The notes: a model not told the origin generated them from the sequence alone. DNA of 64,000 nucleotides from Candidatus Poribacteria bacterium (GCA_965232235.1 OZ246960.1:1132479-1196478), one strand, 5' to 3'. Shown: positions 23,964 to 59,518, numbered from the stretch's first letter. Translations and numbers: made by a program.

Positions 23964-24773
23964 ATGGGCATACAAGACATGTTAGTTTCCGATAAAATCG
24001 GTGCGGAGGTTGCACCGCACCTGATACAACTCAGGCAAGAGGGCTGGTGCGTGCTGGAGGGTGTCATCCCCGAATCCGAAATCGACTCCGTGCGTGAATA
24101 TGTCGCGGCGTCGAGTGAGAAGGCGCTTGAGGCGTACACAAATGACTGGATAAGCATCATTGCCGGCGTACCCGATTTCGCGCCCTACCTCGCCGACGAG
24201 AGCGTGTTGGGGATTGTCAAGACTATGTTCAATCACCCGCACGTGCGAATCGCTCAAACCGAGCTGAAGACTATCGCGCCGCAAAACGGCGACGCACTTC
24301 TCCGTACCTACCATTCCGATTGGCCGCATGATCTCCGAGATCTATCGAAATCCGGGCATATCCACCAACCCTTCCCCGACATCACGATGGCGGTTATCAC
24401 GCTGTGGATGATCTCGCCGTTTACGAAAGAGAACGGCGGCACCTGGATTGTGCCGCGCAGCCACCGTGACACACGGAATCCGCGGGGAAACGACGGCATC
24501 GACCAGAACAAACCGATTCCGAACGAGATGCAGGTGACGGGCAGCGCCGGTAGCGTGCTGATGACGGACAGCCGTATTTGGCACACCGCCACGGCAAATC
24601 TGAGCGATGAGCCGCGGATTGCACTGTTGGCGCGCTATATTCCGTGGTGGGTCAGCGTGGAGATGGGGAAGCGCAATCGGGTGACGATACCGGCGGAGGT
24701 GTTCGCCGCCTTCCCGGAGAACGTGAAGCCGTTGTACCAGCACCGCGTGGATGTAGGAGGATCAAACGAGTGA
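23964..24773 (+). CDS. PhyH-family Fe(II)/2OG dioxygenase, divergent third copy
   Basis: 269 aa. 'YHSDWPHD' (HxD) and distal 'IWHTATAN' His. Cupin-like. Confidence 0.55.
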   Translation: MGIQDMLVSDKIGAEVAPHLIQLRQEGWCVLEGVIPESEIDSVREYVAASSEKALEAYTNDWISIIAGVPDFAPYLADESVLGIVKTMFNHPHVRIAQTELKTIAPQNGDALLRTYHSDWPHDLRDLSKSGHIHQPFPDITMAVITLWMISPFTKENGGTWIVPRSHRDTRNPRGNDGIDQNKPIPNEMQVTGSAGSVLMTDSRIWHTATANLSDEPRIALLARYIPWWVSVEMGKRNRVTIPAEVFAAFPENVKPLYQHRVDVGGSNE

Positions 24774-34271: not shown

Positions 34272-34815
34272 TGACAGTCCTCAGAGATTGTGTTGGAGAC
34301 GATGTCCCTGTTTCAACGAATGAGGGGCATTCGTCAGGAGGATGGGATAGTACCAAAAGAACGGCAGTATAGCATTCACGCAATCGCGCGTCAACGAAAA
34401 TCTCGCTCTGTACCAAGGTGTTCTTCCGTAATGCCAGGGAATTACCGGATTGGGACTGCTCGCCAACCTAGATTTACCGCTTAACATTGCCAAGCGTTTG
34501 TGTTACAATCGCGTCCCGTAAGGATGAGAGGAATGGTGCACGTCATAAGGATGGGCTCTTCGCTTTTGAACACGCAAACGGAGGTACTAAAATTTCTAAT
34601 CATCAATTCGAAGATTGCCCAGAGCCGCCTGAGAGAATTGCGAGCATGGTATTCTATCGCCGTCGCTGTGGTAACAATATCGCATTCACTACGGCATCTC
34701 TTCAGTCTTCCTTATCGGTTATTGATCTGTCGCAAACAACGCCCCGTGTCGCGCTCGCTATCGACTAGTTTGATCTCAGTTGATTTGCCGTTATCTGTTC
34801 TTTGGAGATAAATCT

Positions 34816-36846
34816 ATGAAAACACGACATTTTCGAGCCACGATTTTCCTGTCAATCTGTCTTGCTCTACCGTTAACCGCATCGGCACAAGTCGTAGATG
34901 TCCCGGACTCCAACCTCCGCACCGTGATCGAGAAGGCGCTGAGATTGGCGCCGGGCGACCCGATTACCCAGGCGAAGATGATGGCTTTGAATCGTCTTGA
35001 CGCTAGAAACGCCAATATTAGCAACTTAACCGGACTGGAGGTTGCCATCAACCTGACAAACCTGAACCTTGCGAGTAACATGGTATCAGATATATCGCGA
35101 GTGGCGACCTTAACCAATCTGACAGATTTGAATCTTGCGAACAACATGGTATCGGACCTGTCGCCTGTAGCGGGTTTAATCAACCTGACAAACCTGAATC
35201 TTGCCAAAAACGCGATATCGAACATATCACCCGTGTCGGGCTTACCCAACTTGACGGCGTTGGCTATCGACATCAACACAGTATCGGATATATCACCCGT
35301 ATCGAGCTTAATCAACCTGACAGCGCTGGATTTTCAGAACAACACAATAACCGATATATCGCCTGTGACGAACTTGACCAAATTGGTATTTCTGGTTCTT
35401 CAGAATAACACGATATCGGATATATCACCTGTGGCGGGTTTAACCAACCTGACACTACTATTTCTAGGGAACAACACGATATCGGACATATCACCTCTGG
35501 TGGAAAACACGGGGTTGGGGAGTGGAGACAGGGTTGACCTGCATGGAAACGCCCTCAACTACGCATCCATCCACACGCACGTTCCAACCTTAGAAGAAAG
35601 AGGCGTCGAAATAATCTTCGACAACCGAACACCTCGGAGCATTCGCATCGTCTCGGGCGATGATCAAGAGGGATCGTCCGGTTCAGCGCTCGCAAGCCCG
35701 TGTATCGTTGAAGTGCAGGATGGGAATAGTGTAGCGTTCGAGGGGGTGCCGGTTACATTCGCCGTCACGGCGGGCGGCGGGACACTCAGCGCCGCTAACA
35801 CGACGACAGACGCCAACGGTAGGGCGGAGAGCACCCTTACATTAGGGCCAAATTCAGGCGTGAACACAGTCACGGATTCAGTTACAGGGATTCAGGAGGA
35901 GCCAACGTTCAACGCCGAAGGAATCCGGATACCCAAGGCGTTTTGGATAATCTTCGGGATTGACCAACAAGGGCTGGTCGGTGAAGCGCTTGCTAATCCG
36001 TTTATCGTTGAAGTGAGAGACCAATCCGGCGAACCCATGTCGGGTGCGCAGGTCATGTTCTCCGTCACGGCGGGCGGCGGGACGCTGAGTGTGACAACTG
36101 CCGCAACTGATAGCAATGGTCGGGTAGAGAGTGTCCTAACATTGGGACCGGATCCGGGAACAAACACCGTGACTGTATCTGTGACAGGGATCGAAGAGGA
36201 GCAGTCTGTTAGTGCCACTGCCGAACCTCCCCCGATACCGGAGGATGTAAATAGGGACGATGTGGTGAATATCTTGGATTTGGTGGCGGTCGCGGCGAAC
36301 CTCGGTAATATGGGGACCGACTTGGCGGCGGATGTCAACGGGGATGGGGTTGTGAACATCCTGGATTTAGTGGTCGTAGCGGGTGCGCTTGGGAACGCGG
36401 CGGCGCCAGCTTCGGATCCACGAGCATTGGCGATGCTGACGGCTGCGGAAGTGGGTCGCTGGTTGGCTCAAGCGCAAACACTGGACTTGACCGATGGAAC
36501 AACCCAAATGGGTGTGCTGGTGCTAGAGCAACTCATGGCTGCCTTGACACCGGAGGAGACGCTATTGTTGCCGAACTATCCGAATCCGTTCAACCCGGAG
36601 ACGTGGATACCTTACCAACTCTCACGCGATGCCGAGGTCACGCTGTCGATTTATGATGCCGACGGTTTCATGGTTCGTCGACTGGAGTTGGGGCATCAAC
36701 TAGTGGGCTATTACAGGGATCGGGGTAAGGCGGTGTATTGGGATGGCCGCAACGATGTTGGTGAAAGGGTGGCAAGCGGCGTGTATTTCTATCACTTGGC
36801 AGCAGGGGATATCTCCGCCACGCGGAAGATGCTCATCCTGAAATAG
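34816..36846 (+). CDS. secreted LRR protein with two bacterial Ig-like (Big) domains, dockerin and T9SS CTD
   Basis: RBS 'GGAGATAAATCT' then ATG 34816. Signal peptide 'MKTRHFRATIFLSICLALPLTASAQ'. About 9 LRRs, two Big-like repeats ('VTFAVTAGGGTLS...TDANGRAESTLTLGP'), dockerin 'DVNRDDVVNILDL...DVNGDGVVNILDL', and the Por CTD. Confidence 0.8.
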   Translation: MKTRHFRATIFLSICLALPLTASAQVVDVPDSNLRTVIEKALRLAPGDPITQAKMMALNRLDARNANISNLTGLEVAINLTNLNLASNMVSDISRVATLTNLTDLNLANNMVSDLSPVAGLINLTNLNLAKNAISNISPVSGLPNLTALAIDINTVSDISPVSSLINLTALDFQNNTITDISPVTNLTKLVFLVLQNNTISDISPVAGLTNLTLLFLGNNTISDISPLVENTGLGSGDRVDLHGNALNYASIHTHVPTLEERGVEIIFDNRTPRSIRIVSGDDQEGSSGSALASPCIVEVQDGNSVAFEGVPVTFAVTAGGGTLSAANTTTDANGRAESTLTLGPNSGVNTVTDSVTGIQEEPTFNAEGIRIPKAFWIIFGIDQQGLVGEALANPFIVEVRDQSGEPMSGAQVMFSVTAGGGTLSVTTAATDSNGRVESVLTLGPDPGTNTVTVSVTGIEEEQSVSATAEPPPIPEDVNRDDVVNILDLVAVAANLGNMGTDLAADVNGDGVVNILDLVVVAGALGNAAAPASDPRALAMLTAAEVGRWLAQAQTLDLTDGTTQMGVLVLEQLMAALTPEETLLLPNYPNPFNPETWIPYQLSRDAEVTLSIYDADGFMVRRLELGHQLVGYYRDRGKAVYWDGRNDVGERVASGVYFYHLAAGDISATRKMLILK

Positions 36847-45283: not shown

Positions 45284-46255
45284 TTAAGGAACGAAGGTGT
45301 GTGACCGGGTTTTCAGGCTTCCCCAAATAGCCCTTAACTTACTCGCAGGCTCCACCGGTCGTGCAAAACGCAGATCGAACCACGCAGGATGGCTGTCGGT
45401 CGCGGGATTGTTTGTCAGCCTAGTTTGTTTCCCCCCAATGGCACGCATGACGTAGATTTCAAAGTTTCCGTCCCGCCTAGAGACAAAAGCAATCTTCTGA
45501 CCATCAGGCGACCAGGCTGGATAGTCGTCAACCAACTTATTGCTTGTTAGCCTACGCGGGCGCTCTCCATCGGCATCCATGACATAGATTTCTTTGTTTC
45601 CGTCGCGGGTCGAGACGAAGGCAATCTTTTGACCGCCAGGAGACCATGTTGGATTTGAGTCAAATGCTCTGATTTTATTGTTTGTCAATTTCTGTTGATT
45701 GTTCCCATCGGCGTCCATGACAAAGACTGTAGGGCGGCCGCGCCACGTGGCGTGATAGCCGATTTTTTGACTGTCAGGCGACCATGCCGGAGCGGCAGCC
45801 CACGCCTTGACTGTTAACCTGCGCGGCTTGTTCCCGTCGGGATCCATGACGTAGATGTCATTGTTCCCATCTCGACGGGAGTAGAAGGCAATTTTTCTGC
45901 CGTCAGGCGACCACGCCGGACTGGCATCGGACGCTTCATTGTTTGTTAACCTGCGCGGCTTGTTCCCGTTGACGTTCATGACGTAGATTTCTTTGTTCCC
46001 ATCTCGTTTGGAGACGAAAGCAATCTTTTGACCACTGGCAGACCAGGTTGGCTGTTCGTCAGACGCTCCATTGTTGGTCAACCTGCGTTGGTGTTTTCCG
46101 TCGGCGTCCATGACGTAAATCTCATTGTTTCCATCCCGATCGGAATGGAACACAATCTGTGCCAGTTCTGTCTCTTGCGCAGATGGATTTGACAACATCG
46201 CAACGCCGCTTAAGAGTAGGATAGTCGCTAACATCGTAGATATGAACCTCCTCAT
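45284..46255 (-). CDS. periplasmic TolB-like PD40 beta-propeller repeat protein
   Basis: Signal peptide 'MRRFISTMLATILLLSGVAMLSNPSAQ'. Seven 'WSPDGxKIAFxSxRDGNxEIYVMD' repeats. Confidence 0.65.
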   Translation of the reverse strand: MRRFISTMLATILLLSGVAMLSNPSAQETELAQIVFHSDRDGNNEIYVMDADGKHQRRLTNNGASDEQPTWSASGQKIAFVSKRDGNKEIYVMNVNGNKPRRLTNNEASDASPAWSPDGRKIAFYSRRDGNNDIYVMDPDGNKPRRLTVKAWAAAPAWSPDSQKIGYHATWRGRPTVFVMDADGNNQQKLTNNKIRAFDSNPTWSPGGQKIAFVSTRDGNKEIYVMDADGERPRRLTSNKLVDDYPAWSPDGQKIAFVSRRDGNFEIYVMRAIGGKQTRLTNNPATDSHPAWFDLRFARPVEPASKLRAIWGSLKTRSHTFVP

Positions 46256-46319
46256 GCTGACAACCTCCTAGTATTTATACGCCTATTTAGGTTCGACATT
46301 GTACATTAACATTCGTAAG

Positions 46320-46395
46320 GTAGGATCAAGCGAGTGAATAGATCAAACGAACGATCAACTGAGCGGACAGCGAAGGTGATGGAGATCCCATAGAG
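46320..46395. repeat. interspersed word-family copy (tandem)
   Basis: 'GGATCAAGCGAGTGAATAGATCAAACGAACGATCAACTGAGCGGACAGCGAAGGTGATGGAGATCC'. Confidence 0.55.
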
Positions 46396-46413
46396 ACCCT
46401 TCGAATGACAACC

Positions 46414-48315
46414 TTACTTCCCCACCAACATCTTGCGCGTGGCAGTGAAATCACCTGCGGTCAGCGTGTAGAAATAGACGCCATTTGCCACCGTCTCCCC
46501 CATCTCATTCCGCCCGTCCCAATACGCCGCACGCTCGCGGCTCCGATATGCACCGGCTCGCTGGTGTCCGACTTCCAGTTTTCGAACCGCCTGCCCTCTT
46601 ATGTCATATATTGTCAACACCACCTCCGCTGGATGCGCCAGTTGATACGGTATCCATGTCTCCGGATTGAACGGATTCGGATAGTTTGGCAGGAGAAGCG
46701 TAGCTGTTGGCGTTGACGCACTGGCTGGAGCTGAAAGATTCGGCACGTGGTTTGAGTCGCCCACCGCTGTCATTTGCTTGATCTCGCCCCACGTTGCGGG
46801 AGTCGTGAAATCCCACAACAGGATCGTGCCATCCCAACTCGCGCTGGCAAGCCCGCCACTATTGGGCAAGAAGTCAACTGAAGTGACGGGCGCCGAATGC
46901 CCGTCAAGCGTTTGAAGAAGTTCACCGGTGCGGGCGTTCCAGAACCGTATAGAGTTTGTGTTCGTGTCGGCGAGAGGGTGGTCGCCGCTGCCGCTGGCAA
47001 GTAGGCGCCCATCGGGCGACAATGCGGCGGACACGAAATAGTCCGTGTGCGCTTCAAAAGTTTGCAGGACTTCTCCCGAATGCACATCACACAAGAGAAT
47101 AAAGTGGTGACCACGTCGAATAACAAGTGTGGTTCCATCAGGCGAAAACGCGAGTACACCGCCCGTAAGTCCGGGAAGGGTTCTCAACTTCTCCCCGGAG
47201 TGGGCATCCCAAATCTCAACCGCCTCGGCACCACCGACGGCGAGCGTCTTTCCATCGGGCGAGAATGCGGATCTCCCAACCGTGTGCACCAGTGTGCGTA
47301 GATTCTCCCCAGTGCGGGTATCCCACAAACGAATCGATCCTCTGCTCGCAGTTGCCAGCCTGCCCCCGTCGGGCGAGAAAGCTATTGAGTCGACTCCCTC
47401 TGTGTGCCCCTCTAGGATTTGACCCTCCTCGCCGGTGCGGGTATCCCAGAATCTAACGGTATCGTCGTACCAGCCGCCTCCACTCGCAAGCACGTCTCCG
47501 TTGGGTGAGAAAGCCACGCAACCGACCGTGTGTGAATGTCCCTCAAGTGTCCGCTCCTGTTCCCCGGTGCGTGTGTCCCACAACTTAATCCTGCCATCTC
47601 GGCTCAACCTAGGATTCACGCTGTGCGGTCTTCCCGCACTGGCAAGGGTAAGTCCGTCGGGCGAGAACGCGACCGAGCGTACCGGCTCCGCATGACCTTC
47701 AAGCGTATGTGACTTATTTCCGGTCTGGACATTCCACAACATAATCGCACCGTCTCTGCCTCCGCTGGCAATCGTCAATCCATCGGGCGAGAAGGCTATG
47801 GTGTCGACCGATTCCAAGTGTCCCTCAAGCATTCGCTTGAGTTCTACGTTCCACACATCCCATAAACGGATAAGTTTGTCTTCGCCCGCACTGGCAAGCG
47901 TGGATCCATCGGGCGAGAACCGTACCGAGCGAACCGATCCCCCATGCCCTTCAATGGTTTCAAAGAGTGTACCGCTGCGGACATTCCATCCCCGAACCGT
48001 TCCGTCCGCCCCTCCGCTTGCAAGCGTGTTGCCGCTGGGGGAAAACGCGACCGTAAGAACTGAATCCGTATGCCCCGTGAGGAATTTGAGCGCGACGCCG
48101 CTGCGTGCATCATACATCCATATATCTTTATGAGTCGCAGCCGCTATCCGCCTCCCATCCGGCGAATATGCAATCTCGGTTACCGGTGCTTTTCCGATGC
48201 GCATCTTGGCGCGCCCGGGCAATCCCCATCGTGTAGATTCCTGGGCATAACTGCTCCGCAGAAACACGACGGAAACAAACAATAGGCAAAACCTGAAAAT
48301 CCAAGAGGTTCTCAT
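46414..48315 (-). CDS. secreted WD40 beta-propeller protein with T9SS CTD (no dockerin)
   Basis: Signal peptide 'MRTSWIFRFCLLFVSVVFLRSSYAQ', conserved 'WGLPxxAKMRIGK' head, WD40 units, Por CTD. Confidence 0.8.
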   Translation of the reverse strand: MRTSWIFRFCLLFVSVVFLRSSYAQESTRWGLPGRAKMRIGKAPVTEIAYSPDGRRIAAATHKDIWMYDARSGVALKFLTGHTDSVLTVAFSPSGNTLASGGADGTVRGWNVRSGTLFETIEGHGGSVRSVRFSPDGSTLASAGEDKLIRLWDVWNVELKRMLEGHLESVDTIAFSPDGLTIASGGRDGAIMLWNVQTGNKSHTLEGHAEPVRSVAFSPDGLTLASAGRPHSVNPRLSRDGRIKLWDTRTGEQERTLEGHSHTVGCVAFSPNGDVLASGGGWYDDTVRFWDTRTGEEGQILEGHTEGVDSIAFSPDGGRLATASRGSIRLWDTRTGENLRTLVHTVGRSAFSPDGKTLAVGGAEAVEIWDAHSGEKLRTLPGLTGGVLAFSPDGTTLVIRRGHHFILLCDVHSGEVLQTFEAHTDYFVSAALSPDGRLLASGSGDHPLADTNTNSIRFWNARTGELLQTLDGHSAPVTSVDFLPNSGGLASASWDGTILLWDFTTPATWGEIKQMTAVGDSNHVPNLSAPASASTPTATLLLPNYPNPFNPETWIPYQLAHPAEVVLTIYDIRGQAVRKLEVGHQRAGAYRSRERAAYWDGRNEMGETVANGVYFYTLTAGDFTATRKMLVGK

Positions 48316-48785
48316 CGATTGACGCTCCCTTCCGGCAAGCCGTGAATTACTTCGTGAGTTCAATAGTCAAGCGGGGTCAAAATATTTCCAGCACAAGATG
48401 TTAACGGTTAAATTAACGGCGATTTGGTGGACTTCTCGCTAAGTATTTAACCTAAGTCGCCACCTTTGTAGCACGATCTGTTAGATTGTGCTTGTGATGC
48501 GCAAACTGACAGTTCGCGCTACGAAATATCCACAATTAATGAACTATTCTCAACCAAAAACAGTGGTGCATGTCCAAAATCTTGTAAGTGGCAACTTGGG
48601 TTACTTAATAAAAGTAAGGAGGTCGCGACCTGGAGATCGCTCCTACGGACAGGTCGAGTGTCATAAGGCAGTTTACGGCACACGGAGTGTGCCTACTACT
48701 TTGAAACGTTATTATATAGACTTAGCGAGAAGACCATTTAGCCGGATTCTGTAAAATCCGATCACGGTGTAGGAACGTCTGAAAT

Positions 48786-49349
48786 CTATCGCGACGCTTC
48801 AATCCTTTCTTCGCTGAATGCTTCGTCGACCCACTCTAAAATCCGCCATTCGCCGTCTCTCAATTCAAAGACAAACAGATTATCCCCCTCGGCATACCAT
48901 CCAGTATATCCGCCCTCGAGCGAGACGCCGTCCGCCACGAAGCCTTGAATCCTATAGTGGACTCTGACGTCAGCCCTGTCGCGAGCTGCGTTTAACTCCA
49001 CCTCGGGCGGCTCTTCCAACTCAATCTCGATGTCTTGGTACAATGCGAACACGCGAACCGCCGATTCTCGCTCTTCGCGGATATCATCAAACGTCACATC
49101 ATCTGTCGTGTCGTCTGGTGTACCCATATCCGAGGCATAACGGAAGCCGTCCGCCCAGAAGACATTCATGTATGCATCAATATCTTCAGTTTCATACCCG
49201 GTACGCCACGCTCTCAACGCCTCCTCTATTGCCTCGATTTCTTGAGATTCGGGCGTACCGACCGTACCAACCTCCCCGCAACTCAAAATGCATGAAACCA
49301 TGAGAATCGTGAGTAGTAGAATGCCTGTTCTGGAAAATGCGTTAAACAT
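48786..49349 (-). CDS. hypothetical lipoprotein
   Basis: 'MFNAFSRTGILLLTILMVSCILSCGE' signal with cysteine. 187 aa, acidic. An NTF2/SnoaL-like fold is possible ('YMNVFWADGFRY'). Confidence 0.35.
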   Translation of the reverse strand: MFNAFSRTGILLLTILMVSCILSCGEVGTVGTPESQEIEAIEEALRAWRTGYETEDIDAYMNVFWADGFRYASDMGTPDDTTDDVTFDDIREERESAVRVFALYQDIEIELEEPPEVELNAARDRADVRVHYRIQGFVADGVSLEGGYTGWYAEGDNLFVFELRDGEWRILEWVDEAFSEERIEASR

Positions 49350-49585
49350 GATTGAAAACCTCCTTAAGTTCCAAATGTCAGAATTTTGAAGAAAATGGTA
49401 ATTTCCGATTGATAAACATGGTAAAATTGAACTAGTAAACAGTTGTCTAATCGAAGAGATGTCCATGCACCGCAAGACCCATCCGCGACTCATATGGATT
49501 TGCGGCGAGCGCCGGAAATCTCTTTCTTCCGTTTCCAGTAGCGTTGATACTCTTCATATTTTTGGCGCGAGGAGTAGAACCAACC

Positions 49586-51832
49586 CTATCTGCCGACCAA
49601 CATCTTTCGCGTCTCCGTAAAATCACCCACGGTCAGCGTGTAATAGTAGACGCCGTTCACCACGGTCTCGCCCTGCTGATTCCTGCCGTCCCAATACGCC
49701 GCACGCTCCCGACTTTGATATACCCCGACAGGCTGATGTCCCACGTCCAACGTCCGAACCGCATGTCCCTTCGTATCAAATATGGTTAACCATACCCGCG
49801 CTGGACGCACCAATCGATACGGTATCCACGTCTCAGGATTGAACGGATTCGGGTAGTTTGGAAATAGTGCAGGGGCTATCGGAGTGAGAGGCGTGACTGA
49901 CGGTGACAGCTCTAACAATTGCCTCGTCCCATCGACAATTTCCTTCTGTTTAATATCGCCCCACGTTGTGCCAAATCTCGTTCCCCACAGCAATATTGTG
50001 CCGTCGTTACTCCCGCTGGCAAGCGTGAAACCATCGGGCGAGAATGCTAAGGAGGTGACAGCTTCCGTATGCCCCTCAAGGGCGTACAATTCCGCCTCGG
50101 TGTGTGCATTCCACATTCGAATCGTCTGGTCGTCGCTCCCACTGGCAAGTGTGAAACTCATTGGTGAGAACGCCACGGAAGTAATTTTGCCCGTATGCCC
50201 CCCAGAAAGAAACCACAATCGCCCGGTGCGAGAATCCCACAAACGAATACTCCCGTCCTCATAGCCACCGCCGCTGGCAAGTATGGAACCGTCGGGCGAG
50301 AACGCTACGGAACGTACCTCCCGCATCTGCTTCTCAATACCATATCGTGTTCCATCCTTCGTATCCCACAGACGAACTGCCGCCCCGGCGGTTCCCCCGG
50401 CAATTGTGGACCCGTCCGGAGAAAACGCGATCGACAGAATCTCGTCGCCGTAATGCCGTTGCATCCACAAGTGTTCCCCGGTGCGCGCATCCCACAGACG
50501 GATCGTTTCGTCACTGCTCCCGCTGGCAAGCGCGGAACCATCGGGCGAAAATGCCAGACACAAAATGACTTGGGTGTGCCTTTCAAGCGTCTGCAGATGT
50601 TCGCCGCGGTGCGGATCCCATAAACGAATCGTGGCGTCGCCGCCGCCGCTTGCAAGCGTGAAACCGTCCGGAGAAAACGCAACGCAATAGACGTCTTCCG
50701 TATGTCCCTCCAGCGCCTGCACGAGTTCTCCGGTGCGCGCGTCCCACAAACGGATCGTTGCGTCACCGTTCGCACTGGCAACTGTAACCCCATCAGGTGA
50801 GAACGCTACGAAACGCACCTCGCGCGTATCACCTTTAATCGTCCCCCGAAGTTTGCCGGTCGGCACGTCCCACAATCGAATCGTGTTGCCCGAGCTCGCA
50901 CCTGCGAGCGTTAGGTCATCGGGCGAAAACGCCACCGAATTAACTGCAAGTCGATGCTCGTCGAGAGTGCGCAGACCTTCCCGCTTATGGACATCCCACA
51001 ACCGAATGGTGTTGTCCCCGCTCGTACTGGCGAGGGTTGTCCCGTCGGAGGAGAACGCAACGGAGCGAACTTCCCATTGCCCCCCAAGGGCGCCCAAATA
51101 GTCCCCGGAGCGCACATCCCACAAACGAACCCTTTTCAAGTCGCCGCTGGCGAGCATTTTTCCATCAGGCGAAAATGCGACCGATAAGACGCCGGAGTGT
51201 CCCTCAAAAGTACCCAGGTGCTCGCCCGTGCGGGGGTTCCACAAACGAACCGTGTTGTCGTTCCATTTACTTCCACTGGCAAGCGTGACGCCGTCGCGCG
51301 AGAACGTCAAGGCGAGAACCGCGCTCGTATGTCCCTGAAGGGTGCGCAAGCGCTCTCCGGTGCGAACATCCCACAGAGGAATATCCCTGCCGTCTCCTGC
51401 AGCCAGCGTCGAACCGTCGGACGAAAACGCGACCGAAGTTATATGATTCGTGTGCCCCTCGAAGATCGTTAAGGGTTTCCCGGTGCGAACATCCCACGTA
51501 CGAACGGTGTTGTCTCCGTCAGCTCCGCAACTGGCAAGCATGGCGCCGTCCGGCGAGAACGCTGCGCTCCGTACGGGGCGCGCATGCCCGCTGAGCAAGT
51601 TGACTTCGGCGCCTGTGTTCGCATCGTATAGCCATGTCCCGATGCTACTCCCAACTGCGAGCAGGGTCCCGTCCGGCGAATATGCGATATTGCCTGATAT
51701 CCAACCCTTGCCGAGTCTAGCTTTTGCGCCATCGGGCAATCCCCAGCGGGCATGGTCTTGGGCAAAGCTGGTCTGTAGAAACAGCGTATAAGCGAACATG
51801 ATGCTGAGTTTGAGGAACCGAAATCTTCTCAT
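49586..51832 (-). CDS. secreted WD40 beta-propeller protein with T9SS CTD
   Basis: Signal peptide 'MRRFRFLKLSIMFAYTLFLQTSFAQ'. About 16 WD40 units. Por CTD 'LFPNYPNPFNPETWIPYRL'. Confidence 0.8.
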   Translation of the reverse strand: MRRFRFLKLSIMFAYTLFLQTSFAQDHARWGLPDGAKARLGKGWISGNIAYSPDGTLLAVGSSIGTWLYDANTGAEVNLLSGHARPVRSAAFSPDGAMLASCGADGDNTVRTWDVRTGKPLTIFEGHTNHITSVAFSSDGSTLAAGDGRDIPLWDVRTGERLRTLQGHTSAVLALTFSRDGVTLASGSKWNDNTVRLWNPRTGEHLGTFEGHSGVLSVAFSPDGKMLASGDLKRVRLWDVRSGDYLGALGGQWEVRSVAFSSDGTTLASTSGDNTIRLWDVHKREGLRTLDEHRLAVNSVAFSPDDLTLAGASSGNTIRLWDVPTGKLRGTIKGDTREVRFVAFSPDGVTVASANGDATIRLWDARTGELVQALEGHTEDVYCVAFSPDGFTLASGGGDATIRLWDPHRGEHLQTLERHTQVILCLAFSPDGSALASGSSDETIRLWDARTGEHLWMQRHYGDEILSIAFSPDGSTIAGGTAGAAVRLWDTKDGTRYGIEKQMREVRSVAFSPDGSILASGGGYEDGSIRLWDSRTGRLWFLSGGHTGKITSVAFSPMSFTLASGSDDQTIRMWNAHTEAELYALEGHTEAVTSLAFSPDGFTLASGSNDGTILLWGTRFGTTWGDIKQKEIVDGTRQLLELSPSVTPLTPIAPALFPNYPNPFNPETWIPYRLVRPARVWLTIFDTKGHAVRTLDVGHQPVGVYQSRERAAYWDGRNQQGETVVNGVYYYTLTVGDFTETRKMLVGR

Positions 51833-52088
51833 CGATTGATTCTCCTCGCTGCCACGCTTAAAGCCTGTTTGAACAACCGGTGGCAGAGCCATTATTGAAA
51901 TATTGCAGGAAGTTTTTTCAGGTTTCTTCTTGTATGCTACAAGCCTGCGGGATCTCTATCGCACTCGCTATCCACTCGCTTGATGGATCTGTAAGGGATT
52001 TCTATCGCCTTAATATCTCTATCGTGTGCCCTACCCGGTCACCTGATCTATCCGTTCAGTCGATCTCGTCTAGGGGCTTTTAAAGGCT

Positions 52089-52105
52089 GGTGGGCAGTGC
52101 CCACC
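52089..52105. repeat. GGTGGGCAGTGCCCACC palindrome copy
   Basis: Second copy of the 30-nt conserved box. It sits beside repeat-family words at 51940-52080. Confidence 0.5.
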
Positions 52106-52145
52106 CTACAGATATACTTGGGGCGCGGAATGCATGAGTCCTATT

Positions 52146-54428
52146 CTACTTACCTACCAACATTTTCCGCGTGGCGGTGAATTCTCCCGCAGTCAGCGTG
52201 CAGAAATAGACGCCATTCACTACTGTCTCTCCCTGCTGATTTCGTCCGTCCCAATATGCCGCGTGACCTCGCTCGGTGTAGAATCCCGCTGGTTGATACC
52301 CCAAATCAAATTGCCGCACCAACATACCTTTCGCGTCATAGACGTTGAGCGTCACCTTGGCGTCGTCCGCTAGATGATACGGTATCCATGTCTCCGGGTT
52401 GAATGGATTCGGGTAGTTTGGCAGGAGCGCCGTTTCAGTCGGAGCTACGGACTTGGATGGAGGTGAACGTTCCGGGAGTTGCTTCGTCTCATCGCTGACC
52501 GACACTCGCTTGGTGTCGCCCCACGTTGTTGAACGCATCAGCTCCCACAGCAAGACTGTGCCGTCGTAGCTTCCACTCGCAAGCGTGAGACCATCGGGAG
52601 AAAAGGCGATGAATTTCACCGATTCGGAATGCCCTTCAAGCGTCCGTAGGTGTTCCCCAGTGACAGAATTCCACAGACGAACCGTGTCGTCCCCACTTCC
52701 ACTCGCGAGCGTTAGACCGTCAGGAGAAAACGCTACGGACGCCACCCCGCTGGTATGTCCTTCAATCGTTTGCAGGCGTTCTCCAGTGATTACGTCCCAC
52801 ATACGAACCGTGTCATCCCCACTGCCGCTGGCGAGCGTGAGTCCATCGGCTGAGAACGCCACGGATGTCACGCTTTCTCTATGTCCCACAAGAGCGTGCG
52901 TAGCTTTCGCCGTGCGGATATCCCATAGACGAATTGCGGCGTCGCCCCAACTGCCGCCGCTCGCTAGCATTGCACCATCGGGCGAGAACGCTAGGGTAGC
53001 GACAGTGCCCAAATGTCCCACAAGAGTTTCCAGCCTCTCACCCGTGCGGACATTCCATAAATGAACCATGCTGCCATACCCGCTGGCAAGCCATCTTCCG
53101 TTGGGCGAGAGCGCCACCGCATCGACATCTCCCCATCCACTCCACTCCATGAGTATATGCAAACTCTCACCGGTACGCGCATCCCACAAACGAGCTGTAA
53201 GGTCAATTCCGCCGCTACTGGCAAGTATGGAGCCATCGTGCGAAAATGCGAGTGACCGGACTGTAAATTCATGCCCCACCAAGCTCTGATAGTTTTGCCC
53301 GGAAAGCACATCCCACAGACGAACCGTTTCGTCACCATGTGCCGTAGCGCTCGCGAGTGTAAGACCATCGGGAGAATACGCGATGGAATCCACGGGCATC
53401 GTATGTTCCGCAATGGTCAGAATATCTTCTCCGGTGGGCACATCCCATAAGCACACCCTCCCGTCCCGACTACTTCCGCCCGCAATTATCAACTCATCCG
53501 ACGAAAACCGTATGAAATCGGCAGCACCCGTGTGCGCATAAAACGCCTTTAGATGTTCCCCTGTGTGGACATCCCACAAACGTACCGGGCTGAGTGCGCC
53601 TGGACCCCCACTTGCAAGCGTAAGACTGTCGGGCGAGAACGATATGCAGTTCACACCGCCCGAACGTTCTTCAAGCGAATGCAGGAACTCTCCGGTGCGC
53701 ACATCCCACAAGCGAATATTGCCGCCCCCTCCTGCAAGCGTTTGTCCATCTTTCGAGAACGCTACCGCAGTGACACTACGTGTATTCCCCTTGAGCGCGT
53801 GCAGTAACTCACCGTTGTGGACATTCCACAGACGAATTGTGCTCACCTCCCATCCACCCCCACTGGCAAGTGTGGAACCACCGGGCGAAAACCGGACAAA
53901 TTCGACCGAACGCGTATGGCCGGACAGCGTTCGCAAGAACTCGCCGGTGCGAACATCCCATAAACGAACCGTCTGGTCGCCGTAACCCCCGCCGCTGGCA
54001 AGCATTAAGCCATCGGGCGAGAACGCCACGGATTCGACCGAGCGAGTATGTCCCTCAAGTGTAAGCAGATGCGTCCCGGTGCGCACATTCCACAGACGGA
54101 CTGTTTTGTCTCTCGACCCTCCGCCGCTGGCAAGCGTAAGTCCATCCGGCGAGAACGCTACGGCATACACTCTATCTGAATGCCCGGTGAGAAGATTGAC
54201 TTCTGCGCCAGTTTTCGCGTCATAGAGCCATACGCCAATGCTACTCGGTACAGCAAGCAGGGCACCGTCCGGGGAATAGGCAATCTTGCCGGTTATCTCA
54301 CCCTTGCCGAGCCGCATCTTGGCACCTTCGGGCAATTCCCACCGGTTATAGTCCTGGGCATGACTGCTCTGCAGAAACATAGCACAAACTATCAGAGGGC
54401 TGAGCTTGAATAACCTAGATTTCTTCAT
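52146..54428 (-). CDS. secreted WD40 beta-propeller protein with T9SS CTD
   Basis: Signal peptide 'MKKSRLFKLSPLIVCAMFLQSSHAQ', WD40 units, Por CTD. Confidence 0.8.
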   Translation of the reverse strand: MKKSRLFKLSPLIVCAMFLQSSHAQDYNRWELPEGAKMRLGKGEITGKIAYSPDGALLAVPSSIGVWLYDAKTGAEVNLLTGHSDRVYAVAFSPDGLTLASGGGSRDKTVRLWNVRTGTHLLTLEGHTRSVESVAFSPDGLMLASGGGYGDQTVRLWDVRTGEFLRTLSGHTRSVEFVRFSPGGSTLASGGGWEVSTIRLWNVHNGELLHALKGNTRSVTAVAFSKDGQTLAGGGGNIRLWDVRTGEFLHSLEERSGGVNCISFSPDSLTLASGGPGALSPVRLWDVHTGEHLKAFYAHTGAADFIRFSSDELIIAGGSSRDGRVCLWDVPTGEDILTIAEHTMPVDSIAYSPDGLTLASATAHGDETVRLWDVLSGQNYQSLVGHEFTVRSLAFSHDGSILASSGGIDLTARLWDARTGESLHILMEWSGWGDVDAVALSPNGRWLASGYGSMVHLWNVRTGERLETLVGHLGTVATLAFSPDGAMLASGGSWGDAAIRLWDIRTAKATHALVGHRESVTSVAFSADGLTLASGSGDDTVRMWDVITGERLQTIEGHTSGVASVAFSPDGLTLASGSGDDTVRLWNSVTGEHLRTLEGHSESVKFIAFSPDGLTLASGSYDGTVLLWELMRSTTWGDTKRVSVSDETKQLPERSPPSKSVAPTETALLPNYPNPFNPETWIPYHLADDAKVTLNVYDAKGMLVRQFDLGYQPAGFYTERGHAAYWDGRNQQGETVVNGVYFCTLTAGEFTATRKMLVGK

Positions 54429-54459
54429 CAGGTATTTCTCTTTCTTGAAACCGTGAATT

Positions 54460-56754
54460 TTACCTGCCGACCAACATCTTCCGCGTGGCGGTGAAACCAT
54501 CGGTGGTCAGTGTGTAGAAATACACGCCATTTGCCACCAGCTCACCCTGCCGATTGCGCCCGTCCCAATATGCCGCGTGTTCGCGGCTCCGGTACGCACC
54601 GGCAGGCTGGTGTCCCATTTCCAGTGTCCGAACCAACTGTCCTCTCATGTCACAAATCGTCAACACCACCTCCGAGGGCTTTCCCAGATGGTACGGTATC
54701 CACGTCTCCGGGTTAAACGGATTCGGGTAGTTTGGTAGAAGCGCCGTGTCCGCAGCAGTTAAGAGAGTAACTGAAGGTGAAAGTTCTATTGATTGCCCCG
54801 ACCCGCCGACGAACTCCGATTGCTTTATCTCACCCCAAGCCGTCACTTGCCTCACATCCCACAGTAGAACCGTACCGTCTGTGCTCGCGCTAGCCAAGGT
54901 TGAGCCATCGGGCGAGAAAGCCACGCTGGTGACTGACAACCAATTCCAGTTGAAGGTCTTCCCGATCTCCCCGGTGTGTACATCCCGTAATCGAATCACG
55001 GCGTCCCGGCTCCCACTGGCAAGCATACCCTCACGGCGCGAAAACGCAATAGCATTGAGACCACCGATATTATCACCAAGGATTCTCAGACCTTTCCCGG
55101 AGTGTACATCCCACAATCGGATGGTATCGTCTCGACTCCCGCTGGCAAGCATGGAACCGTCCGACAGGAACACTACGGAAATGACATCATCTGTGTGTCC
55201 CTCCAGCATCCCCAAATATTTTCCTGTACGTGCGTCCCACAAACGAATCGTGTCGTCCCGACTTCCGCTGGCAAGTGTGAATCCGTCCGGAGAAAACACT
55301 ACGGACGAAACCGCGTTTACGTGTCGACCGAGGGTATGTATCCCTTTTCCCGTGCCCGAATCCCACAACCGAACTGTGTTGTCCCAACCTCCACTGGCGA
55401 CCGTGCGCCCGTCGGGTGAGAACGCCACCGAATACACCTCGCCCGCATGCGCCTCAAGCGTATGTAGCCGTTCTCCGGAGTGGATATCCCATAACCGAAC
55501 CGTTCCGTCGTATTCTCCGCCGCCGCTGGAAAGCGTATACCCATCGGGGGAAATAGCCACACAACTCACTCCGTGCGTATGTCCATCAAGTGTTTGCTTG
55601 TGCTCCCAAGTTCGTGCATCCCACACACGAATCGTACCGTAAACGCCGCTGTGTGCAAAGAGATGTCCATCGAGCGAAAAAGCAATAGCGCCTTCCGTGT
55701 ACGGATATCCCCCATGATATCCCTCAACGGTATGCTTGTGTTCCCGATTGCGCATATTCCAAAAACGAATCGTACCGTCCCAACTTGCGCTGACAAGCGT
55801 GAGCCCCTCGGGCGAGATTGCTACAGAAGTCACCCTATCCGTATGTCCGGTTAGCGTCTTTAGGTGTTCTCCCGTATGCCCATCCCACAATCGTATGGTC
55901 TCGTCCCGACTACCACTGCAAAGTACCTGTCCATCCGGGGAGAACGCTACCGAGGTTACTTCGCTCACATGCCCCTCAAGCGTATGCAGGTGTTCACCCG
56001 TACGCGCATCCCACAAACGCACTGCGTTGTCATACCAACCGCCAGCGCTGGCAAGCGTTGAACTGTCAGGCGAGAACGCTAACCAATTGGATTCATCCTT
56101 ATGCCCCTCAAGCGTATGCAGGTGCTCACCCGTGCGGACATCCCACAAGCGAATTGTCTCGTCCCGGCCGTCTGCGCTGGCTAGCATGGAACCGTCCGGC
56201 GAGAACGCCACCGCATTCACCGAAGTGTTGTGACCGTGGAACGAGCGCAGGTGGTCACCTGTGCCGACATCCCACAGACTGATTGAATCGGCACGCTCTG
56301 AGCCGATACTATTTCCGCTAGCGAGGGTAGAGCCGTCGGGAGAAAACGCCAGAGCAGTTATATAAAGCGCATGACCTTTGAGCGTTCGCCGGTGCTCACC
56401 CGTATGAGCGTCCCACAGACGAATTGTAGGGTCGTCCCTGCCGCGGCCGCCGCTAGCAAGCGTGGCGCCGTCCGGAGAAAACGCGACGGAACCGACCCGA
56501 GCCGTATGCCCTGTGAGCAGGTTGAGCTCGGTGCCGGTCCCGGCATCATAAATCCAAATACCGGCATTGCTCGCGATCGCGATCCGAGTCCCGTCGGGTG
56601 AATAGGAAATATTACTGGTTATTTCGCCCTTCCCGATTCGCAATTTCGCGCCTTTGGGCAAGCCCCATCGTGTATAATCTTGGGCGAAACTGCGCGGTAC
56701 AAACAGAGCAACAGCGAGCAATAGGTAAAGTTTGAACCCCCATTTACTCCTCAT
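54460..56754 (-). CDS. secreted WD40 beta-propeller protein with T9SS CTD
   Basis: Signal peptide 'MRSKWGFKLYLLLAVALFVPRSFAQ', WD40 units, Por CTD. Confidence 0.8.
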   Translation of the reverse strand: MRSKWGFKLYLLLAVALFVPRSFAQDYTRWGLPKGAKLRIGKGEITSNISYSPDGTRIAIASNAGIWIYDAGTGTELNLLTGHTARVGSVAFSPDGATLASGGRGRDDPTIRLWDAHTGEHRRTLKGHALYITALAFSPDGSTLASGNSIGSERADSISLWDVGTGDHLRSFHGHNTSVNAVAFSPDGSMLASADGRDETIRLWDVRTGEHLHTLEGHKDESNWLAFSPDSSTLASAGGWYDNAVRLWDARTGEHLHTLEGHVSEVTSVAFSPDGQVLCSGSRDETIRLWDGHTGEHLKTLTGHTDRVTSVAISPEGLTLVSASWDGTIRFWNMRNREHKHTVEGYHGGYPYTEGAIAFSLDGHLFAHSGVYGTIRVWDARTWEHKQTLDGHTHGVSCVAISPDGYTLSSGGGEYDGTVRLWDIHSGERLHTLEAHAGEVYSVAFSPDGRTVASGGWDNTVRLWDSGTGKGIHTLGRHVNAVSSVVFSPDGFTLASGSRDDTIRLWDARTGKYLGMLEGHTDDVISVVFLSDGSMLASGSRDDTIRLWDVHSGKGLRILGDNIGGLNAIAFSRREGMLASGSRDAVIRLRDVHTGEIGKTFNWNWLSVTSVAFSPDGSTLASASTDGTVLLWDVRQVTAWGEIKQSEFVGGSGQSIELSPSVTLLTAADTALLPNYPNPFNPETWIPYHLGKPSEVVLTICDMRGQLVRTLEMGHQPAGAYRSREHAAYWDGRNRQGELVANGVYFYTLTTDGFTATRKMLVGR

Positions 56755-56830
56755 TCGATTGTTCTCCTTGCGATGCGTATCTATTCTCACAGCCTGCTCA
56801 TTTTTTGCGCCGTGCAGACAGTATTGTCGC

Positions 56831-59119
56831 TTATTTCACAAGATTCATTCGGCGAGTGCTGCGAGATTCGCCCGACTGCAGCGTGTAAAAATACAATCCG
56901 CTCGAAACGGTCTCGCCCGCATCGTTCCGGCCATCCCAATACGCTGCTTCCGACGAAGAGAGATAATCACCTGCGGACTTGGTGCCGAGATTAAGCGTCC
57001 GCACCTGACTCCCCGACGCATCGTGAATCCGGATGTTTACGTTGGCTAACTCGCTCAGTCGATACGGTATCCAGGTTTCCGGGTTGAACGGGTTGGGAAA
57101 GTTCGCCAGTAACACAGGTTTCTTGATCCATCCCAAGAGAACGGGTTCAGGAAGAAGGAATGGGGTGACATCCCAAATCTGCGGCGAAGGGTAGGTAAAA
57201 CGCGTAAGTAGCACCGACCCATCCCGACTGACATCCGCGTATTCTGGCAAAATTGGGTGTTCAAGGGGCTGGTTGGCACGCCAATTCCAAATCTGTAAAC
57301 CATCCTCTCCGTTCAAGAACAGGTAGCGCCCATCTGCACTGAAATGTGCAGGACCTTTGCCGTCAATCCGAAACAACTGTTCCGGCGCTTGTTCACCAAG
57401 TTGCCATCCCACAACCGCGTCGTACGTTGCAACAACTAAAATCGGGGGCGCAGCATGCGGATGAAACACGACGTTTGAACCGTAAAAACAACTGACGGGG
57501 ATTAATGGGAACCATGAGTAGCGATAGCTATATTCGTGTTCGCCCTGTTCCCACAAGTGCAATCGCGTACGCCTGTCCGATGCGACAAGATAGCGGTCAT
57601 CTTCGCTGAACGCAAAGCAGTATCCTGGTTCATTTCCCAGTAACTGGCGACGGTGCGGCTCATCAACATCCACTACCACCGTCGCGTTATTCCAATAGGC
57701 GCGTGTCGCAATACGGTCTCCACGATTACTAACTGCAGTCGCCATCAGCCCTCCTCCATCGAGAAGACGCGCCTGTAAACTACCGGTATATATGTCCCTG
57801 ACTTCCGTGCCGTCTGTGTCCAAGCCGACCGCAAATCGCCGACTATCCCGAGAAATCGCTAACGCATGACTATATTTTTGTGTCCCTTCGAACACGACAT
57901 GCCGCACCGAGCGTGATGGCACATCCCAAACCTTAATCAACGTGTCGTATACCTGCACGAGCGATTTACCGTCCGGGCTGAGACCGGCCCAAGCACCACG
58001 CCCGTAACCTGCCCATAGCCTGAGTTGCCGATTCTGTTTCAGGTCCCAAAGAACGGCAACCTGATCGTAATACTGCAAAATCGCGCGGCTTTCGTCGGGA
58101 GACACCGAGACGTGCTTGAGGGCGGCCGGCTCCGCGCGGAACTCGTTGATTAACGTGTTTGTCTCGACCTCCCAGACGCGTAGCCGGTCATTGAACGTAT
58201 TCCTATGGGCCCGCTGCGGCGTTCTGGTTCCCACGTACAGCCGCCGGCTATCTCCGCTGAAAACGAGTTCGAACACCTCGCCCTCATTGTAAGCTCCGAA
58301 ATCTCCGTTCCTCAGCGTTCGCGCCAGTTGGCGGGTCTCGGCGTTCCACAGGTAGACCTTCGTCGACCCCACCTCGGTCGTGGCAATCCATTGACCTTCA
58401 GGACTGTAAGCAACCTTGGTGACCCAATCCTCATGACCTTCCAAATGCCCGGCAAGCTTTCCTGTCTCAAGATCCCAAATCTCGGCATCCGGACGTTTCG
58501 ATCCGACAACGAGAAAGCGATCATCGGGACTGAAGGCTATAGAGAAGACGAATGGTGGTCGGTCATTGCACCTTGAACTGCTCCAGTTACCCCGCCAGTT
58601 ACTGCCAGAGCGACTATAACACTCATCGACAGGTCTCCTCTTATCCTCCAGCCGACCAACCCATTCACCCGTCTGCCAATCCAGCAAGAAAATATCGTCT
58701 GTCCTGCCATTTAACGCAAGAAGCGGCTGTGACCTACCGAATGCAACGCGAGACGGATAATCCAACACTCCCGCCGTCCACAATCCAAGAGATGCGAATT
58801 CCCATTCTCCGAGTTTCTCTTGCCCGTTAATGTCCCAGAGTTCGACCATGTCCTGTCTTCTGATAACAAGCAGCCTGCCATCCGGACTGACAATCACCAA
58901 CCCTAAGAATTCCGAGCTTTCGGCGAAGTTTGCAAGCACTACGTCGTTGTCCGGATCCACAATCTCTATATGCTTTGGCATAACGCGTAGCATATTCCCG
59001 TTAGGAAGGAGAGTAAGCTGGCGCAGGTACCCTTTCCCGATAGTTCCAATCGGCTCAATCGCCAGCGCTTCGCCGACGATGAGCAAACACATAAACACAA
59101 TAACGACAAATATTTTCAT
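56831..59119 (-). CDS. secreted divergent WD40-like beta-propeller protein with T9SS CTD
   Basis: Signal peptide 'MKIFVVIVFMCLLIVGEALA'. Looser WD repeats ('VWDLKQNRQLRLW', 'IWDLETGKLAGHLEGHEDWV'). Por CTD 'LANFPNPFNPETWIPYRL...AAYWDGRND'. Confidence 0.7.
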   Translation of the reverse strand: MKIFVVIVFMCLLIVGEALAIEPIGTIGKGYLRQLTLLPNGNMLRVMPKHIEIVDPDNDVVLANFAESSEFLGLVIVSPDGRLLVIRRQDMVELWDINGQEKLGEWEFASLGLWTAGVLDYPSRVAFGRSQPLLALNGRTDDIFLLDWQTGEWVGRLEDKRRPVDECYSRSGSNWRGNWSSSRCNDRPPFVFSIAFSPDDRFLVVGSKRPDAEIWDLETGKLAGHLEGHEDWVTKVAYSPEGQWIATTEVGSTKVYLWNAETRQLARTLRNGDFGAYNEGEVFELVFSGDSRRLYVGTRTPQRAHRNTFNDRLRVWEVETNTLINEFRAEPAALKHVSVSPDESRAILQYYDQVAVLWDLKQNRQLRLWAGYGRGAWAGLSPDGKSLVQVYDTLIKVWDVPSRSVRHVVFEGTQKYSHALAISRDSRRFAVGLDTDGTEVRDIYTGSLQARLLDGGGLMATAVSNRGDRIATRAYWNNATVVVDVDEPHRRQLLGNEPGYCFAFSEDDRYLVASDRRTRLHLWEQGEHEYSYRYSWFPLIPVSCFYGSNVVFHPHAAPPILVVATYDAVVGWQLGEQAPEQLFRIDGKGPAHFSADGRYLFLNGEDGLQIWNWRANQPLEHPILPEYADVSRDGSVLLTRFTYPSPQIWDVTPFLLPEPVLLGWIKKPVLLANFPNPFNPETWIPYRLSELANVNIRIHDASGSQVRTLNLGTKSAGDYLSSSEAAYWDGRNDAGETVSSGLYFYTLQSGESRSTRRMNLVK

Positions 59120-59490
59120 TATTTCCCTTTTAACGCTGTGGTTGGCATTATGGCCATGCTGCTATCTCAGAGCGGATACCTTACTAAACACGCAAATGCT
59201 ATGCCACGAGCTGATAATGCCGCGAGACTTGCCACAGTGCGGGTTTCTCGCGTTATGCGGCGTACTCGCGGGGATTCAAACTGTTCAGTTTCTGGACACG
59301 ATTGTTCAATAATGGTTTAACCAGTGTCCGAAAAAGGGCAGTGAGGCGTCTGTTGATAGGTTTGGATTACCACTTATTGAGGATCGGCGAAGGCAGGCTT
59401 ATCGGAAGGATAAGGGATTAACGATGGAAAATCCGGCTAGTTTTTGAGGATGATTACAGAAATATCACTGGGCGGAAGGACAGTCAAATC

Positions 59491-59518
59491 TTGACTTTTG
59501 GCTGTTCGATGCTATAAT
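59491..59518 (+). promoter_or_regulatory. strong sigma70-like promoter (TTGACT-16-TATAAT), likely for rlmB
   Basis: TTGACT 59491-59496, TATAAT 59513-59518. About 240 nt upstream of the rlmB ATG. The leader contains repeat-family copies at 59590-59727. Confidence 0.5.

Follow-up and report, generated by a model that had tools for sequence, protein, structure and literature searches.

A tandem array of putatively exported WD40 proteins sharing a C-terminal immunoglobulin-like tail in a Candidatus Poribacteria chromosome

Introduction

Why would a bacterium keep, one after the other, several genes for large WD40 repeat proteins of a eukaryote-like kind, and where would the products of these genes go? 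The question is raised by a locus in the chromosome of Candidatus Poribacteria, a sponge symbiont, of which we analysed a 64 kb stretch (hereafter the window; all coordinates are positions in the whole stretch). Translation of positions 46414-59119 yields six consecutive open reading frames (ORFs) on the minus strand, five large and one small, and the large ones encode propeller proteins that end in a common C-terminal tail. This layout agrees with the original prediction, made from the sequence alone, of five paralogs interrupted by one small lipoprotein gene, and the two additional copies that it had placed at 13558-19029 are likewise found, at 13558-16182 and 16504-19029. We consider it rather probable that the array encodes Sec-exported WD40 scaffolds for protein binding, multiplied by tandem duplication and displayed on or released from the cell surface, in which the tail directs export or anchoring and the ligands belong to the host or to the matrix.

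Results

Four of the large array proteins, encoded by the genes starting at 46414, 49586, 52146 and 54460, are built to one plan, in which a signal peptide is followed by a short head, a run of WD40 repeats, a linker rich in Ser and Pro, and the tail. The plan is best described for the gene at 49586-51832 (minus strand; orthogroup B), whose 748-residue product serves as our exemplar: the signal peptide covers residues 1-25 (51832-51758), the head strand and 14 blades residues 36-617 (51727-49982), a disordered linker residues 620-667 (49975-49832) and the beta-sandwich of the tail residues 668-748 (49831-49589). The minus-strand genes at 52146-54428 (orthogroup A; 760 residues from 'MKKSRLF') and 54460-56754 (orthogroup E; 764 residues from 'MRSKWGF') also encode 14 blades each, and the stop codon of the latter lies 32 nt upstream of the start of the next gene. 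The minus-strand gene at 46414-48315 (orthogroup C) encodes 633 residues from the Met of 'MRTSW' (as listed, the ORF extends to 48363 and starts with TTG), comprising a signal peptide that ends in ..SYAQ before E, the head WGLPGRAKMRIGKAP, 11 blades, the linker and the tail. The small gene, at 48786-49349 on the minus strand, codes for a putative lipoprotein of 187 residues that begins MFNAFSRTGILLLTILMVSCILSC, followed by GEV, with a plausible lipobox ('ILSC'); it is SnoaL_4/NTF2-like (SnoaL_4, 24.9 bits against a cutoff of 24), and an exact-sequence look-up places it in a 55-member cluster whose two named members are labelled Candidatus Poribacteria.

The fifth large gene, at 56831-59119 (minus strand; orthogroup F), stands apart. 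Its product of 762 residues is a divergent beta-propeller with the same tail; it starts with MKIFVVIVFMCLLIVGEALA, followed by IEP, and thus carries a different signal peptide (..ALA before IEP) and no WGLP head. Only about two WD40 blades are recognisable in what appears to be a degenerate propeller, and identity to the other copies is 31-33%; the protein belongs to a 23-member cluster and bears the JGI name 'WD40 repeat protein'. The signal peptide ending in AQ and the WGLP head, predicted for the whole array, are therefore a feature of four of its genes and not of this one. The same four proteins and the two copies at 13558-19029 have in common a signal peptide ending in ..AQ before D or E and a head of the form WG/ELPxGAKxRxGKG.

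All seven propeller proteins carry a predicted Sec signal peptide, with a basic n-region and a hydrophobic core (..AQ before D or E in six proteins, ALA before IEP in the seventh), as judged by inspection and by a predicted helix at residues 2-18. These signal peptides, which would put the proteins outside the cytoplasm, speak against the idea that the propellers are sensor modules related to STAND/NLR-like defence proteins. The idea arises because, among the matches listed, NB-ARC-WD40 and caspase-WD40 proteins from cyanobacteria and Ktedonobacteria share about 45% identity with the WD40 region, and because PADLOC reports a partial match to the WD40 segment of its model PDLC02919. However, that match spans only about 200 of the 1972 model positions, and scans with Pfam and NCBIfam found neither an NTPase domain (NB-ARC or NACHT) nor an effector domain; we regard a defence role as very improbable and close to refuted.

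The repeats are genuine WD40 repeats. In six of the proteins Pfam WD40 (PF00400) scores 318-481 bits against a cutoff of 27, with E values from 1e-98 to 1e-149, so that one of the two objections foreseen in the original prediction does not hold for these six; the protein of 56831-59119 scores 62 bits, with one clear repeat. Counted with a hidden Markov model (HMM) built from the window's own repeats, five proteins have exactly 14 blades and the protein of 46414-48315 has 11; none reaches the upper end of the 14-18 that had been estimated. The blade consensus is GHxxxVxSVAFSPDGxTLASGxxDxTIRLWDxxTGExLxTLE. In an alignment with the orthologs from four of the related loci described below (L006, L007, L009 and L010), the protein of 46414-48315 shows a clean in-frame loss of three blades (about 126 residues). 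Eleven blades cannot form two seven-bladed propellers, and this copy may therefore be decaying or structurally altered. Blades are on average 46% identical within proteins and 45% identical between them. Recent concerted evolution of the blades was considered and ruled out by this 46% average, the positional signal being mainly in blades 1 and 14.

An AlphaFold2 model of the exemplar protein (748 residues; alignment of 27 sequences) has a mean predicted local distance difference test score (pLDDT) of 84 and a predicted TM-score (pTM) of 0.73. It consists of a signal helix at residues 2-18, 57 strands between residues 36 and 617 (pLDDT about 90), disorder from 620 to 667 and a beta-sandwich at 668-746. 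Compared with the Protein Data Bank (PDB) by Foldseek, the model matches 2YMU first (42% identity, E 3e-53) and then eukaryotic tandem double propellers, with TM-scores of about 0.66. The model thus supports a fold in which the 14 blades of the WD40-tail proteins form two seven-bladed propellers. A strand is predicted for residues 36-40 ('AKARL') of the head, in a sequence register that matches a blade's outer strand, and the model gives the last blade three strands only; for these reasons the head would be a capping (velcro) strand, probably one that completes the last blade as its fourth strand. Such a role would also explain why, between paralogs, blades 1 and 14 are the best conserved (63% and 62%, against 40-54% for the interior blades).

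The tail begins with the motif LLPNYPNPFNPETWIPY in each of the seven propeller proteins. Scanned in six frames, the window contains the motif nine times, the two additional copies being on plus-strand leucine-rich repeat (LRR) proteins, so that the seven copies originally counted are all of the propeller proteins but not all of the tail proteins. What kind of domain the tail represents depends on the model used. TIGR04183, the model of type A sorting domains of the type IX secretion system (T9SS), gives 31, 20.4, 25.5, 30.1, 26.9, 20.4 and 24.8 bits against a cutoff of 23, which five of the seven tails exceed. The Pfam model Por_Secre_tail (PF18962) gives 21.6-26.3 bits, below its cutoff of 27 in all six tails reported, and no match at the threshold used for the tail of 49586-51832. 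FlgD_ig, in turn, gives 26-41 bits against a cutoff of 27, which six of the seven exceed. A search of PDB sequences with the tail found only FlgD (2e-5) and no relative among solved T9SS C-terminal domains (CTDs). A model of the tail alone (pLDDT 85) has the immunoglobulin (Ig)-like domains of FlgD as its best Foldseek matches (E 6e-5, TM-score 0.60-0.65), followed by T9SS CTDs, namely those of PorZ (5M11; E 1.6e-3, TM-score 0.54) and PorU (6ZA2; E 7.8e-3), and by the translocon-bound CTDs of T9SS substrates (NucA/RemA, E 2e-2 to 7e-2; NucA CTD 8GLK_D, 2e-2). As modelled, the fold of the tail agrees with that of a T9SS type A tail, without telling it apart from a FlgD-type Ig domain. The common tail that the original prediction had called a Por CTD is therefore real, while its affiliation is divided between TIGR04183 and the better-matching FlgD_ig; the T9SS export route that the name implied is a putative one.

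These matches bear on the principal alternative, according to which the proteins are exported by Sec but retained in the periplasm or envelope, the tail being a FlgD-type Ig-like structural or adhesive module and the propellers envelope scaffolds. We hold this to be unlikely, though with a real chance of being right. FlgD_ig is the best match of the tail in Pfam, among PDB sequences and by fold, Por_Secre_tail falls below cutoff in every copy for which it is reported, and no structural genes of Por secretion were found in poribacterial single-cell genomes (Kamke et al., 2014; PMC3909097). However, TIGR04183 lies above cutoff in most copies, the fold matches extend to PorZ, PorU and translocon-bound T9SS substrates, and the tail occurs strictly at the C-terminus, after a disordered linker, on unrelated LRR and WD40 cargo, as a sorting tag would. 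This distribution leads us to keep the tail as a candidate export or anchoring signal of surface-displayed scaffolds.

Relatives of the proteins carry names given by NCBI such as 'T9SS type A sorting domain-containing protein [Candidatus Poribacteria bacterium]'. The full-length homolog search was saturated by generic WD40 words (8000 of 8000 candidates) and yielded no usable census of the family; it served only for names and for building an alignment. Among the best 120 WD40 homologs in a large protein collection, 79 carry the tail motif, with blade counts that peak at 13-14 and have a second mode at about 20. The list obtained with the tail alone is headed by 'tail-only' proteins of 92-160 residues on poribacterial contigs. 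We rejected these as a separate family of small proteins because their first residues fall within the linker or the last blade and signal peptides are lacking; they probably derive, as fragments, from genes that were frameshifted or truncated.

The two propeller genes outside the array, both on the minus strand, add a further domain. The products of 13558-16113 (851 residues from 'MLNRKH'; the 13558-16182 given above is the gene's other listed extent) and 16504-19029 (841 residues) have the same architecture, with head, 14 blades, a type I dockerin pair, a helical linker and the tail, and their tails are 93% identical. Dockerin_1 scores 34.9 and 36.5 bits, respectively, against a cutoff of 22.9, and the duplicated calcium-binding motif DxNxDGxxxxxD is represented by DVNQDGVVNILDL and DINGDGVVNLHDL. 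By domain content both qualify as bearers of type I dockerins with a cohesin encoded nearby, the pairing being putative. The cohesin belongs to the first of the two plus-strand LRR proteins with the tail, at 27757-31887 (1376 residues), which combines LRRs, cohesin, dockerin, helical linker and tail (LRR_4, 1e-45; Cohesin, 39.8 bits against a cutoff of 24.1; Dockerin_1; FlgD_ig) and in which the first 690 or so residues have no Pfam match. The second, at 34780-36846, combines LRRs, Big_1, dockerin, helical linker and tail, according to the domain scan. The protein of 27757-31887 is a context member of the same export-tagged repertoire.

A cassette made of the type I dockerin pair, a helical linker of about 45 residues and the tail is common to these WD40 and LRR proteins (13558-14277, 16504-17223, 31200-31887 and 36250-36846); its linker reads ..RWLAxAxxLxxxDxTxxxGIxxLExLLxxLxPEET. 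From its sequence and distribution the cassette looks like a shuffled export or anchor module. An LRR protein is also encoded at 4875-6482 (plus strand), overlapped by an ORF at 6449-7027 (plus strand) with a dockerin pair at its end and without the tail; a frameshift could have split a single gene at 4875-7027 in two, or the second ORF could encode a dockerin protein without the sorting tail.

The cohesin of 27757-31887 together with five dockerin-bearing proteins in the window suggests a cohesin-dockerin network. It could be asked, then, whether the propellers are parts of a cohesin-dockerin complex on the surface that captures polysaccharide or matrix substrates, with no part in the recognition of host proteins. 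The type I dockerin pairs of the two copies outside the array, the cohesin-bearing LRR protein with the same tail 9 kb away, and the dockerin motifs present in 47 of the 79 tail-bearing homologs argue for such a complex, as does the fact that Poribacteria are known as polysaccharide degraders. Nevertheless, none of the five array genes encodes a dockerin, no glycoside hydrolase is found in the array, and WD40 propellers typically bind protein, so that we think this reading quite improbable and continue to view the array proteins as scaffolds that would bind protein ligands.

Is the array a stable feature of these genomes? The locus was compared with others by anchoring on the non-repetitive SnoaL-like gene, with 10 kb of flanking DNA on each side. 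The 22 related loci are all from poribacterial metagenome-assembled genomes (MAGs) or chromosomes, and the clusters to which window proteins belong by exact sequence are likewise named Candidatus Poribacteria. In eight of them the anchor is 84-93% identical and is surrounded by WD40-tail genes, of which 3-8 per 20 kb are complete (as many as ten ORFs are present if copies are split by frameshifts), a comparison of copy number across related assemblies that the original prediction had itself pointed to. Clustering at 68% identity of the genes in nine genomes (the window and the eight loci) gave 23 orthogroups overall. The core gene order is A-B-[anchor]-C(-D); the window and five of the loci, six genomes out of nine, have A-B-anchor-C, and F-E-A-B-[anchor]-C is common to the window and OZ240209.1 (L006). 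Among the fetched loci, an ortholog of E occurs only in L006 (89% identity). The A-B pair is tandemly duplicated in three genomes, unique members occur in three loci (L001, L003 and L009), and in L014 WD40-tail genes are split into two ORFs at 5223-7479 and 13179-17791, as a result either of pseudogene formation or of indel errors in long reads. In the window itself the WD40 paralogs are 47-58% identical as proteins and 60-80% identical as DNA, with no long exact or near-identical repeats.

The repetitive nature of WD40 DNA and the split ORFs of L014 could prompt the suspicion that the array is an artefact of assembly, produced by collapse or expansion of repeats. We give this explanation almost no weight: the divergence of the copies and the absence of long near-identical repeats, together with a gene order that is kept in independent assemblies, including closed chromosomes of 6.1-6.6 Mb, exclude a misassembly as far as sequence alone allows. 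Rather, the comparisons indicate that the array arose by tandem duplication and that turnover continues through duplication of units, deletion of blades and frameshifts. Duplication followed by diversification, as had been proposed, fits the identity between paralogs, the orthogroups of the nine genomes, the duplications of the A-B unit and the elevated ratio of nonsynonymous to synonymous substitutions (dN/dS) reported below.

In the remaining fourteen loci (L002, L004, L005, L011-L013 and L015-L022) the anchor is 55-79% identical and lies in a different, conserved neighbourhood that has no WD40 genes. This neighbourhood comprises malate synthase, a bacterial microcompartment (BMC) shell protein, PTAC, DUF5683, a Wzz-like protein, an unannotated protein of about 1113 residues and ExbB/ExbD, and the set includes MAGs with isolate names suggesting the open ocean. 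Since this second anchor paralog is more widely conserved and has a fixed neighbourhood, the copy within the WD40 array looks like a derived duplicate.

The substitution pattern was examined with dN/dS values obtained by the method of Nei and Gojobori for window genes and their orthologs. The WD40-tail genes give 0.24-0.34, the anchor gene 0.10-0.19, the neighbouring PD40 gene 0.16 and the gene for dihydroxy-acid dehydratase (DHAD) 0.03. Across the 42 columns of a blade, entropy is maximal at columns 3-5, 7, 16, 23, 25, 32-33, 37 and 39. In WD40 propellers the d-a loops and b-c turns make up the top face, which binds ligands, and the residue before the conserved Asp is a hotspot. Assuming this standard topology, we take columns 3-5, 7, 23 and 25 to lie on the binding face. 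Pooled over 14 ortholog pairs, columns 3, 4, 5, 7, 23 and 25 have a dN/dS of 0.70 (1.31 for column 23 alone and 0.96 for column 5 alone), against 0.44 for the other variable columns and 0.22 for the blade core. Divergence is thus fastest at positions in the loops of the top face, a pattern that would be expected of a diversifying binding surface.

The rest of the window is chromosomal DNA of an ordinary kind, with genes for 2-oxoacid dehydrogenase subunits, SHMT, an H+-pyrophosphatase, DHAD, a Mur ligase family protein (likely folylpolyglutamate synthase) and three PhyH (phytanoyl-CoA dioxygenase) proteins. A horizontally transferred island was considered and rejected, the GC content of the array genes, overall and at third codon positions (GC3), lying inside the range of the window. 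The three PhyH genes (12471-13388, 21202-22011 and 23964-24773, plus strand) fall within 12 kb; supplementary tables to Kamke et al. (2014; PMC3909097) refer to a poribacterial expansion of this family. The next gene downstream of the array, 45284-46255 (minus strand), encodes an exported PD40/TolB-like propeller, and 32067-34271 (minus strand) an exported PQQ/BamB-like protein with SH3 and PD40 domains, making the window dense in propellers beyond the WD40 family. Phase-variable promoters, raised in the original prediction, have left no sign: 46000-59500 holds zero inverted repeats, and promoter-like and terminator-like sites are fewer there than in shuffled sequences.

Discussion

The observations fit a pathway in which each protein would be exported by Sec by means of a cleavable signal peptide and would fold as a rigid double propeller, with the head strand as its cap. 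Between the propeller and the common C-terminal Ig-like domain of about 80 residues there would be a flexible, disordered linker of about 45 residues; the Ig-like domain may act as a tag for sorting or anchoring beyond the periplasm and would be shared with LRR cargo. The propellers would serve as diversified binding scaffolds, of the sort called 'eukaryote-like proteins', for ligands of the host or the matrix. What the analysis shows is the organism, the architecture, the predicted fold, the synteny, the turnover and the substitution pattern; the location outside the outer membrane, the sorting role of the tail, and the binding and type of host ligands are what we infer.

Several points weigh against this account. 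By sequence as well as by predicted fold, the tail is closer to the Ig-like domain of FlgD than to any solved T9SS CTD; the 64 kb window contains no T9SS component, such as SprA/Sov, PorV, PorU or GldK-N; and, given that Por genes are missing from the single-cell genomes as described by Kamke et al. (2014), the role of the tail as a secretion signal is unproven. WD40 repeats are not enriched in sponge-associated MAGs overall, though they are abundant in Poribacteria (Robbins et al., 2021). Moreover, dN/dS stays below 1 overall, the pairwise estimates that were pooled depend on one another, and the pattern among sites is equally compatible with relaxed constraint and with diversifying selection.

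Beyond the favoured reading of the array as surface-displayed or released scaffolds, a bolder proposal can be made, which we consider decidedly doubtful: that Poribacteria export a large, fast-turning repertoire of WD40 and LRR binders by a tail-dependent route distinct from canonical T9SS, with many of its members linked on the surface by cohesin-dockerin pairs. If true, the result would be a modular complex for host interaction, similar to a cellulosome but made from binding domains instead of enzymes. In the literature we found nothing relevant that links Poribacteria with T9SS, dockerin or cohesin, and in the searchable literature no description of a tandem locus, a fixed plan of 14 blades, a head cap, blade deletion or a dockerin-linker-tail cassette. 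Any remaining novelty may thus lie in the export route and in the possible cohesin-dockerin network.

Among solved structures the window proteins most resemble 2YMU ('highly repetitive propeller structure'), their best PDB match in both sequence and structure, whose solved chain of 577 residues is about as long as the 14-blade region. The two would also agree in blade number and consensus. Proteins of the 2YMU type have near-identical internal repeats, whereas the blades of a window protein are far more diverged from one another (46% identity on average), and the window proteins have in addition a signal peptide and a C-terminal domain of the sorting type. The eukaryotic proteins with tandem double WD40 propellers, such as the UTP/WDR proteins of the SSU processome, Gemin5 and microtubule inner proteins of the EML type, likewise have two seven-bladed propellers per chain (TM-scores 0.61-0.67), but they are only 17-23% identical and are intracellular scaffolds of RNA or the cytoskeleton that have no export signals.

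With the type A cargo of the T9SS of Bacteroidota (TIGR04183/PF18962) the array proteins would share an N-terminal signal peptide, a flexible linker and a C-terminal, predicted Ig-like beta-sandwich of about 80 residues. They differ from it in that the Pfam model of the tail stays below threshold, FlgD-Ig is the better match, and no T9SS machinery is reported in Poribacteria.

The closest likeness is to proteins known from Poribacteria themselves. WD40 domains were found to be highly abundant in poribacterial single-cell genomes, and many eukaryote-like proteins, 'especially WD40 repeats', were described as carrying TIGR04183, with proposed roles in host interaction (Kamke et al., 2014; PMC3909097). 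With pfam00400 repeats and TIGR04183, the array proteins are poribacterial eukaryote-like repeat proteins, agreeing with those of 2014 in phylum, domain combination, proposed role and the question of export. Seven WD40 propellers in 64 kb, which the original prediction had judged exceptional for a bacterium, are accordingly typical of the phylum, and the array is a well-resolved example of a protein kind already described, and not a new system. The 2014 genomes were fragmentary single-cell assemblies, and the part of the main text that deals with these proteins says nothing of tandem arrays, a double-propeller plan of 14 blades, a capping head, a SnoaL-anchored locus or a dockerin cassette; the words 'dockerin' and 'cohesin' are absent from the main text (Kamke et al., 2014). 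What the array adds to that description is a view of one class of eukaryote-like proteins as it is assembled and diversified in a sponge symbiont, on a fixed plan and in an anchored gene order, while the number of copies and of blades varies between closely related genomes and substitutions concentrate on the presumed binding face. It also sharpens the question left in 2014, of how hundreds of proteins with T9SS-type tails are exported in a phylum with no reported T9SS, at a time when closed poribacterial chromosomes (for example, OZ240209.1, OZ242354.1 and OZ244829.1) have come to stand beside the single-cell genomes.

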